From assembly GCF_044324875.1 (NCBI RefSeq), contig NZ_CP172185.1: 64,000 nt of DNA. One strand, written 5' to 3'. Origin of the DNA: Escherichia coli (GTDB lineage Bacteria > Pseudomonadota > Gammaproteobacteria > Enterobacterales > Enterobacteriaceae). The notes under the pieces are model-generated. The model worked only from the letters and a program-made list of their open reading frames with translations. It was not told the DNA's origin and ran no database searches. Below are positions 45,722 through 46,600 of the stretch, piece by piece; the stretch's first letter is position 1; each line of letters opens with the position of its first letter. Made by a program: the position numbers and the translations under genes.

Positions 45722-45873
45722 ATTGCGCTCCTGATTGTTGCAGGTAGTGTCTCTCTTCGAAGCGGATAAGTCAAAAACATATATGACTTAACGAATGTGT
45801 AAGCGCAGAAGAAGGTAATAGGTGTGAATTAAGAGTTGGGTATTCATTTGAAAGGAGGTCTGAATCAGGACGT

Positions 45874-45960
45874 AAAAAAACCGACTTTGCGTCGGTTTTT
45901 TACTTTCCAGCCCTGAGTTGGTGGCTCTGGCTGGAGTGAGAGAGCTCTTATCTAACAGCT
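45874..45960 (-). ncRNA. agrB: AgrB-like sRNA (dinQ antitoxin repeat); 5' end approximate
   Basis: repeat unit with minus-strand intrinsic terminator (ccgacgcaaagtcgg + U-tract) and the block cagccctgagttggtggctctggctggagtgagag, which is complementary to the dinQ leader; arsR-proximal copy, assigned agrB from the K-12 order gor-dinQ-agrA-agrB-arsR. Confidence 0.55.
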
Positions 45961-46108
45961 CAATACTATTAGCCAGTGGCTAACATTGCAAGAATTAGCG
46001 ATTTCTTCAGCTGGCGGAGGGAGCACTTCGGTATACATGGCAGTGAAAGAGGATTTATATACTTTCACCGGATTATCGCCGTACTAAGCCTTGTCCGAAT
46101 CCGGATGT

Positions 46109-46195
46109 AAAAAAACCGACTTCGCGTCGGTTTTTTTACTGTTCAGCCCTGAGTTGGTGGCTCTGGCTGGAGTGAGAATGCCATCATCTAACTTT
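46109..46195 (-). ncRNA. agrA: AgrA-like sRNA (dinQ antitoxin repeat); 5' end approximate
   Basis: second near-identical repeat unit with the same terminator hairpin and the ctctggctggagtgaga block; dinQ-proximal copy. Confidence 0.55.
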
Positions 46196-46252
46196 TCCAT
46201 GCTATTACCTTAAAAGAGACATTGCAAGGTTATGCTGGTTATTTAGCCTAAT

Positions 46253-46274
46253 TACACTGTATGATTATCCAGTT
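46253..46274. promoter_or_regulatory. LexA (SOS) box upstream of dinQ
   Basis: tacactgtatgattatccagtt contains CTGT-N8-CCAG, one mismatch from the CTGT-N8-ACAG core; about 190 bp upstream of the dinQ ORF. Confidence 0.55.
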
Positions 46275-46465
46275 AGCTCTGAGGCATTTTCACTCTGGCA
46301 ATGCGCATAAACGCTTTCAAAGTCCTGATCAGTGGTACGGGTGGTGCCGTTAACTGATGCTCTGGCCGGAGTGAGAGAGTTCTTATCTAACAATGAGACA
46401 TGCGCCGTGACAGGCAGTGGATGAGTAAGCGGATGCATTCTCACTCCATCGCATGGAGAAAACGG

Positions 46466-46549
46466 GTGATTGATAAAGCAATCATCGTTCTTGGGGCGTT
46501 AATTGCGCTACTGGAACTGATCCGCTTCCTGCTTCAGCTTCTGAACTGA
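46466..46549 (+). CDS. dinQ: DinQ, SOS-induced type I toxin (single-TM peptide)
   Basis: 27-codon ORF from GTG encoding (M)IDKAIIVLGALIALLELIRFLLQLLN, matching the DinQ peptide; preceded by the LexA box and the agr-complementary leader. Confidence 0.75.
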   Translation: MIDKAIIVLGALIALLELIRFLLQLLN

Positions 46550-46566
46550 TAGCGGAAACGTAGCTA

Positions 46567-46600
46567 AGGGCAAAGAGCACACCACTCTTTGCCCTTTAAC
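46567..46600. terminator. Bidirectional intrinsic terminator between dinQ and gor
   Basis: hairpin agggcaaagag...ctctttgccct flanked by T/A-rich tracts in the convergent gap. Confidence 0.6.

Follow-up and report, generated by a model that had tools for sequence, protein, structure and literature searches.

The interval between arsR and gor in the Escherichia coli chromosome raises the question of whether the DNA separating these two genes is empty intergenic sequence or a toxin-antitoxin locus with all its parts. The question was addressed in a window of 64,000 nt (the whole stretch of DNA analysed here, from contig NZ_CP172185.1 of assembly GCF_044324875.1), for which a first-pass annotation had proposed a dinQ/agrA/agrB array at this position. 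Judging from its sequence, the interval is almost certainly the chromosomal dinQ-agrAB locus, a type I toxin-antitoxin system that is apparently intact and has its orthologue in K-12. The dinQ/agrA/agrB locus was already described in 2013 and 2016 (Weel-Sneve et al. 2013, PMC3567139; Kristiansen et al. 2016, PMC5066626), and the copy in the window is a further orthologue that adds no new principle, being ordinary save for a rare variant of the promoter region.

Results

The interval is flanked by arsR (45368-45721, minus strand) and gor (46603-47955, minus strand), which is the genomic context of dinQ-agrAB. An alignment to the arsR-gor region of K-12 had been proposed as a check, and it showed that a region of 921 nt is collinear end to end with arsR-agrB-agrA-dinQ-gor of K-12, with an identity of 93.3% and with the same order and orientation of the genes. 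The identity of this region to strain 042 was 94.1%, and none of the complete E. coli genomes exceeded that value across the whole 921 nt. In the annotation of K-12 MG1655, gor, dinQ (b4613), agrA (b4712), agrB (b4713) and arsR are ordered and mutually oriented as they are in the window, where the arsR-proximal unit is agrB and the middle unit is agrA, which are orthologous to b4713 and b4712, respectively. The names dinQ, agrA and agrB given in the first-pass annotation agree with that of K-12 and are backed by Rfam and NCBIfam scores well over the curated cut-offs. Its warning that the array is prone to being passed over as empty intergenic DNA applies to agrA and agrB, which are unnamed in the RefSeq E. 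coli records listed, but not to dinQ, which is annotated in them, nor to K-12 MG1655, whose annotation carries all of these genes. As for the surroundings, over 20-40 kb of the window the identity to E. coli strains was 99.4%, on which ground a non-coli Escherichia as the source was rejected, and the arsR-gor neighbourhood was locally more diverged, the best match of gor reaching 98.1% in a collection without Shigella genomes.

The repeat array was delimited with the 17-mer CTCTGGCYGGAGTGAGA, for which an exact-match search of the 64 kb gave three matches, at 45925, 46161 and 46360, and none outside the dinQ-agrAB locus. With up to three mismatches allowed, four matches were found against 0.15 expected, a number that was reached in 0 of 100 shuffles. 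The 17-mer belongs to a block of 34 nt present in three direct copies on the plus strand, with spacings of 236 and 199 nt and with identities of 82-94%. Copy 1 (45924-45957), taken as the reference, is the 5′ antisense block of AgrB, copy 2 (46160-46193, 82% identical to copy 1) is the 5′ block of AgrA, and copy 3 (46359-46392, 94% identical to copy 1) is the antisense target in the dinQ leader and is invariant among the window, K-12 and 042. The repeat units with a shared block noticed at first reading were recovered in this way, including the placement of the third one in the dinQ leader, as copy 3 starts at +88 of the plus-strand dinQ mRNA. The description as three units stands for the three direct copies, but the third is partial: the similarity of units 1 and 2 extends over about 114 nt and takes in a palindromic hairpin with an A-run on one side and a T-run on the other, whereas the third shares with them the 34-nt block only (+88 to +121 of the leader).

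Both small RNA genes were found on the minus strand using the AgrB family model of Rfam (RF02891), whose gathering score is 40. The agrB gene (84 nt, 45872-45955) matched the model over its full length (1-84) with 108.1 bits (E 1e-19), and the agrA gene (85 nt, 46107-46191), which is a diverged paralogue of agrB, also matched at full length, with 91.9 bits (E 3.9e-16). The 5′ end of agrB at 45955 is the counterpart of the transcription start in K-12. The predicted folds were more stable than those of shuffled controls, with −30.1 kcal/mol for AgrB (z −4.95) and −29.5 kcal/mol for AgrA (z −4.72), and in both of them an internal stem-loop is followed by a terminal hairpin of 11-14 bp and a U-run. 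These terminator hairpins lie at 45875-45901 (agrB) and 46107-46139 (agrA), both on the minus strand and with the U-tail after them; as the RF02891 matches include the terminal hairpin, the minus-strand terminators ascribed earlier to the two arsR-proximal units were found again by model and by fold. Matches below the Rfam threshold were also seen, namely two to AgrB on the plus strand (35.8 and 23.3 bits) and one to Spy779816, and they were set aside, since the palindromic terminators explain them.

The promoters of the small RNAs were read by eye from the sequence. That of agrB (45963-45991, minus strand) consists of a −35 hexamer TTGCAA at 45986-45991, a 17-nt spacer and a −10 hexamer TAGTAT (reverse complement at 45963-45968) placed 7 nt from the start, and it is identical in the window, K-12 and 042. 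That of agrA (46199-46227, minus strand) has the same −35 hexamer (46222-46227) and spacer length, with TAGCAT as the −10 hexamer (reverse complement at 46199-46204). A generic scan for promoters and terminators with a threshold of 9/12 recovered none of the signals of the locus. The agr promoters were missed because their hexamers, with 8/12 positions agreeing with the consensus, score below that threshold, and the terminators were probably missed by the consensus scan as the A-run and the U-run lengthen the stem and thereby consume the T tail. The failure of the scan is no evidence against the agr promoters or terminators.

Upstream of dinQ, the sequence CTGT-N8-CCAG pointed out by the first-pass annotation was located at 46257-46272, and it turned out to be the top LexA-like site of the 64 kb. 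It forms the core CTGTATGATTATCCAG (CTG-N10-CAG) of a 20-mer, CACTGTATGATTATCCAGTT (46255-46274), which ranked first among 63,981 positions with 21.3 bits, compared to 13.3 bits for the next one, and fell within the range of the training sites; the weight matrix was a rough one, built from LexA operators that were not a curated set. Many occurrences of the bare pattern CTG-N10-CAG are to be expected by chance in 64 kb (an estimate, not a computed figure), and the idealised palindrome TACTGTATATATATACAGTA had no match in the 64 kb at a tolerance of three mismatches. The weight matrix was used instead because the real box, with six mismatches, is too far from that palindrome. The box overlaps the dinQ −10 hexamer TATGAT (46260-46265) and the +1 position (46272), and LexA is predicted to bind at this operator over the dinQ promoter. 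The 16-nt core equals that of the K-12 operator, for which a heterology index of 4.83 was published (PMC3567139), and box 1 is conserved in all the Escherichia loci that retain the promoter.

Differences from K-12 were found around this core. The K-12 box scores 23.2 bits; its T at position 1 of the 20-mer is replaced by C in the window. Moreover, a weak site near the K-12 box, TGCTGGTTTTATAACCTGCA, scores 13.2 bits, while its counterpart in the window scores 2.5 bits; we infer that this is the second K-12 operator, which passages of PMC3567139 place close to the first with a heterology index of 13.82. With C at the first position and the weak second operator degraded, SOS control could differ in degree from that of K-12. 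The candidate −35 hexamer of dinQ is weak and lies inside a diverged stretch of 64 nt.

The primary transcript of dinQ would run over about 329 nt on the plus strand (46272-46600) if the K-12 numbering is transferred, a length to the terminator hairpin that matches the published northern band of about 330 nt. Downstream of the LexA box the alignment to K-12 is free of gaps, and the coordinates of the leader were taken through it from the numbering of PMC5066626, in which GGAG is G184-G187. Thus numbered, the plus-strand leader comprises element 1 (U16-C28, 46287-46299), the +44 processing site (46315), the AgrB target (G88-A119, 46359-46390), which is inside repeat copy 3 and contains element 2 (G94-G106, 46365-46377), element 3 (U167-U178, 46438-46449) and element 4 (A182-G187, 46453-46458), which holds GGAG at 46455-46458. 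The first and last base of every element agree with PMC5066626, and the leader is invariant relative to K-12 over 46257-46327 and 46335-46491. The repeat core returns in inverted, incomplete form as elements 1 and 3, and the locus holds in all three direct and two inverted copies of a GGAGTGAGA-like sequence. Furthermore, a perfect inverted match of 14 nt links the AgrA block (46168-46181) with 46435-46448, overlapping element 3.

The complementarity to the leader spans about 31 nt at the 5′ end of the small RNAs, being near-perfect for AgrB and poorer for AgrA. In the window, AgrB and dinQ form 29 Watson-Crick pairs and one G-U pair over 31 positions, with a duplex energy of −58.2 kcal/mol, while AgrA forms 24 Watson-Crick and four G-U pairs over 31 (−45.2 kcal/mol). 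The same calculation for K-12 gave 30 Watson-Crick and no G-U pairs over 31 for AgrB (−58.2 kcal/mol), and 24 and four over 31 for AgrA (−42.7 kcal/mol), the published complementarities in K-12 being 30/31 and 25/31, respectively (PMC3567139).

The minimum-energy folds of the leader depended on its 5′ end. The RNA starting at +1 was predicted to form a duplex between elements 1 and 2 and a hairpin between elements 3 and 4 over GGAG. In the RNA starting at +44, element 2 was paired with element 3 (+97 to +105 with +168 to +176) and the hairpin between elements 3 and 4 was gone, and this hairpin returned when +88 to +119 were barred from pairing as a mimic of bound AgrB. The predicted folds reproduce the exchange of partners published for the four leader elements (PMC5066626). 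That study found the ribosome site open by SHAPE, a state absent from the thermodynamic prediction for the +44 RNA, in which GGAG was weakly paired with CUCU (+89 to +92), with a probability of being unpaired of 0.08-0.22.

The dinQ ORF occupies 46466-46549 on the plus strand and has 27 codons plus the stop, with GTG as the start codon and TGA as the stop codon, the Shine-Dalgarno sequence GGAG (46455-46458) being 7 nt upstream of the GTG. Its product, VIDKAIIVLGALIALLELIRFLLQLLN, is identical to K-12 DinQ (YP_001165328.2), the genes differing at three synonymous nucleotides, and it scored 54 bits with the NCBIfam equivalog model NF041472 (damage-inducible type I toxin DinQ), whose cut-off is 30; in Pfam, there was no DinQ model. 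The 27-codon ORF that had been matched to DinQ at first sight is dinQ by both comparisons, and it would encode a single-helix membrane toxin. The peptide was also identical in the 13 other dinQ-bearing loci fetched (from E. coli strains, E. albertii, E. whittamii, other Escherichia representatives and two metagenome-derived contigs), where the DNA was 83-94% identical to the region of the window, and such invariance amid this level of DNA identity indicates purifying selection. Downstream of the ORF, a 12-bp terminator hairpin is formed by an inverted repeat with 100% complementarity (46566-46596), which is present in the minimum-energy fold and occupies the dinQ-gor position at which a terminator was placed in K-12 (PMC3567139). 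It ends 7 nt from the gor stop codon and probably terminates gor as well. Its stem carries an A/T to T/A compensatory swap relative to K-12, which may be taken as a sign of selection.

The distribution of the array was explored by scanning 298 Gb of genomes with the 17-mer, which gave 48 matches, mostly single and in unrelated phyla; by estimate, a number of this order would arise by chance with a query of that length, and relatedness was confirmed, by BLAST and Rfam, only for loci of Escherichia, Serratia, Citrobacter, Hafnia, Pantoea and another Enterobacteriaceae genome. Two AgrB-family matches were found in K-12, 042, E69, E. whittamii and the window, and one in E. albertii, Escherichia sp. 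E1V33, SCPM-O-B-8794 and several E. coli strains. Outside Escherichia, a single AgrB-family RNA adjoins a dinQ-like sequence in Serratia, Citrobacter, Hafnia, Pantoea and the other Enterobacteriaceae genome; these loci correspond to the described dql family, and none falls outside the known family. In the strains with a single agr gene, the target block of dinQ was seen to co-vary with the remaining agr. Moreover, in E. coli of the GN02350 type the 199 nt that separate the agr repeat block from that of dinQ are missing, and the LexA box has gone with them, as have the two promoters. The interval from agrB to agrA contains a relic of gor (46009-46087, minus strand), derived from an internal part of that gene, with a core (46029-46085) 89% identical to gor at 46815-46871; in the multi-species alignment, the window and E. 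whittamii keep 4 nt of this relic that are missing in K-12, 042, E69 and MEW.

The feature that sets the window copy apart is a patch of 64 nt that separates the agrA start from the LexA box (46193-46256), where only 39-43 of the 64 positions, or about 62-67%, are identical to any other Escherichia locus, these other loci being nearly invariant among themselves over the patch. None of 5,426 complete E. coli genomes carried the allele, nor did the representatives of other Escherichia species examined (a collection without Shigella); one metagenome contig, 94% identical to the window outside the patch, had it without any change. The −35 hexamer TTGCAA of agrA, the 17-nt spacing and the −10 hexamer TAGCAT are all retained within the patch, and the preservation of the agrA and agrB promoter hexamers amid a heavily diverged spacer is a sign of selection. 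On the dinQ side, LexA box 1 is kept, the weak second operator is lost and the −35 region has a different sequence. An origin from the agrB promoter by gene conversion was considered and found unsupported, given an identity of about 54% outside the hexamers (ungapped, by eye).

Since the patch is unchanged in a second lineage and the agrA hexamers are kept, it looks like a discrete rare allele rather than decay. A further step, that this allele controls agrA and dinQ in its own manner, might shift the basal or SOS level of DinQ or the level of AgrA, and was maybe recombined from an unsampled relative, is speculative and on balance unlikely. Much less likely still is that the patch disabled the promoters of dinQ, agrA or both, so that the locus would be a decaying remnant and the repeats and the ORF its relics. 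The low identity of the patch to loci that hardly differ from one another fits such decay, as does the degraded second LexA site, and true decay alleles do occur in E. coli, as the 199-nt loss of the GN02350 type illustrates. However, the −35 and −10 hexamers of agrA with their 17-nt spacing, LexA box 1 and the dinQ −10 hexamer TATGAT are all kept, and no damage is seen in the DinQ ORF, the leader elements, AgrB or either terminator, while the unchanged state of the patch in a lineage with 94% identity elsewhere suggests a maintained allele.

Finally, the idea that the repeats are generic intergenic DNA (REP/BIME-like elements or duplication scars) with bidirectional terminators of arsR and gor and an ORF arisen by chance can practically be dismissed: palindromic hairpins with A-runs and T-runs could act on either strand and give the sub-threshold plus-strand AgrB matches of 35.8 and 23.3 bits, and the promoter and terminator scan recovered none of the proposed signals, but the full-length minus-strand matches to the covariance model are far over the threshold, the 17-mer is limited to the dinQ-agrAB locus within the window, the peptide is invariant across species with synonymous changes only, the dinQ target block changes along with the remaining agr in single-agr strains, and the published northern blots and mutants refute it for K-12, where transcripts and phenotypes were demonstrated (PMC3567139).

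Discussion

The arsR-gor interval of the window is best read as an apparently intact dinQ-agrAB locus. What the window itself shows is which parts are present, in which order and from which families, how far they are complementary and conserved, and which alternative pairings are predicted, while all the functional steps are carried over from K-12. Induction, processing, expression and toxicity in the window strain would follow from orthology to K-12 and from sequence identity. In K-12, dinQ was found to be induced by UV in northern blots (PMC3567139), and toxicity and antisense control were demonstrated for the identical peptide and for near-identical RNAs (PMC3567139, PMC5066626).

Applied to the window, the published K-12 model would operate as follows. 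LexA bound at its operator would repress dinQ, and since it covers the −10 hexamer and the +1 position, transcription would be expected mainly upon DNA damage. The primary transcript of about 329 nt would be inert, as the pairing of elements 1 and 2 would leave element 3 free to bury GGAG together with element 4. Removal of the first 43 nt, giving the +44 form, would eliminate element 1 and allow element 2 to capture element 3, whereby the hairpin over the ribosome site would dissolve and the 27-residue DinQ could be translated from its GTG. The peptide would then enter the inner membrane, causing depolarisation and a lowered ATP level. On the antitoxin side, the promoter of agrB, which lies on the opposite strand about 400 nt away, would be constitutively active, and the first 31 nt of AgrB would pair with the leader from +88 to +119, including element 2, so that the hairpin over the ribosome site would close again. 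According to passages of PMC3567139 and PMC5066626, this pairing would also promote RNase III-dependent decay of the dinQ mRNA. AgrA, with its poorer pairing, would lower the amount of full-length dinQ RNA and would not block translation.

The main value of the result concerns annotation, as the interval is occupied by genes rather than empty, and in most of the RefSeq E. coli records listed dinQ is named but agrA and agrB are not. Moreover, the promoter patch, the co-varying single-agr strains and the 199-nt deletions, most of which are outside the window, could serve as natural experiments on the matching of antitoxin and target.

Compared with dinQ-agrAB of K-12, the window copy is alike in its flanks, gene order, DinQ peptide, AgrB target, elements 1-4, Shine-Dalgarno sequence and start codon, as well as in the LexA core, the promoter hexamers of agrA and agrB and the presence of two agr copies. 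Among the differences behind the overall identity of 93.3%, the changes are concentrated in the 64-nt patch (about 24). The gor relic is 4 nt longer in the window and the spacing between agrB and agrA is 236 nt instead of 231 nt. In addition, AgrB of the window has one extra G-U pair towards dinQ relative to K-12 AgrB, and positions 12-13 of AgrA are AU in the window and UA in K-12.

The dql genes of Enterobacteriaceae (dqlA/dqlB) likewise combine four mutually exclusive leader elements with a short hydrophobic peptide (PMC5066626). The peptide of the window reached only 14.9 bits with the DqlB model NF041473 (cut-off 35), compared to 54 bits with the DinQ model, and the locus is a true dinQ orthologue in the arsR-gor position, not a dql locus.

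A further comparison is with tisB/istR-1 of E. coli, an SOS-induced type I toxin-antitoxin system, to which passages of PMC3567139 liken the dinQ locus. No sequence relationship between tisB/istR-1 and the locus of the window was seen. The tisB gene encodes a small membrane toxin under LexA control, its primary transcript being inert and activated by 5′ processing, and a divergent antisense RNA acts on the processed form. This antisense RNA, IstR-1, blocks a ribosome standby site, and the tisB locus has no duplicated antitoxin. The mode of action of AgrB would differ in this respect, since it would force a hairpin to close over the ribosome site itself, unlike the block of the standby site by IstR-1.

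Sequence divergence in the arsR-gor region

The spacer of the agrA promoter, together with the -35 region of dinQ and the second, weak LexA site, falls within a divergent patch of 64 nt (46193-46256), of which only 39 to 43 positions were identical to any other Escherichia locus fetched, these loci showing almost no variation among one another in this stretch. Despite this divergence, the -35 and -10 hexamers of agrA and LexA box 1 (46257-46272) were kept, and an identical patch allele was carried by a metagenome contig (ERZ1034798). Over the whole 921-nt arsR-gor interval, the top identity among complete E. 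coli genomes was 94.1%, none being higher.

An internal piece of gor was found as a relic between agrB and agrA (46009-46087), in the same orientation as gor and comparable to positions 46795-46871 within gor, and the core of the relic is 89% identical to gor. Four nucleotides (GAAA) and several gor-like bases of this relic were present in the window and in E. whittamii, and absent from K-12, 042, E69, MEW and ERZ1034798. Moreover, the product of a minus-strand ORF of 38 codons (45952-46068) includes a Gor-like peptide of 12 residues.

On a larger scale, E. coli MEW was the closest strain across 20-40 kb (99.4% identity to the window), with local divergence hot spots at 43250-43750, directly downstream of arsB (122 differences in 500 nt), and at 41250-41500 (23 differences in 250 nt). 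This clustering of differences suggests that the neighbourhood of the ars genes is a mosaic produced by recombination.

Terminators and overlapping reading frames

Two changes set the stem of the dinQ/gor terminator (46566-46596) apart from its K-12 counterpart, and they compensate each other: with A/T at position 46572 and T/A at position 46590, all 12 bp of the stem remain paired. As the agr terminators are palindromic, sub-threshold AgrB matches were obtained on the plus strand at 46049-46139 and 45830-45904 (35.8 and 23.3 bits, respectively). Furthermore, a potential hairpin, CCGGAUU...GAAUCCGG, lies upstream of the agrA terminator on the plus strand.

A minus-strand ORF of 57/59 codons (46265-46444) lies antisense to the dinQ leader. 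Several E. coli genomes in RefSeq list it as a 'hypothetical protein' (e.g. WP_001362224.1, WP_001296816.1 and WP_001297979.1), but it is probably an artefact of gene calling across the conserved leader. Outside Escherichia, three to four copies of the 17-mer CTCTGGCYGGAGTGAGA, spaced by about 183 nt, were observed in two contigs of Prevotellaceae metagenome-assembled genomes from rumen or gut (L016, 9787-10352; L031, 12522-12906), presumably representing an unrelated tandem repeat.

Deletion and single-agr variants

Some E. coli genomes were missing the 199 nt that separate the agr and dinQ repeat blocks, as exemplified by E. coli GN02350 (positions 1598-1790 of its locus, compared with 46160-46392 in the window), a loss that apparently arose when the repeats recombined with each other. 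Both promoters, that of agr and that of dinQ, disappear with this segment, as does the LexA box, while the annotation of the dinQ coding sequence persists in the genomes concerned. Query coverage was below 80% in about 830 of the 5,422 matching genomes, a figure that includes this deletion class and is not the count of the class itself.

Finally, strains that have only one copy of agr carry an altered target block in dinQ, which now matches the remaining AgrA-like RNA, as seen in the loci of E. coli C3 and ETEC6335 aligned to 46160-46400 of the window. In particular, E. coli C3 carried AATGCCATTATC in both the dinQ target block and the agr copy. Such matched changes suggest that either gene conversion or co-evolution of the antitoxin with its target has shaped these loci.
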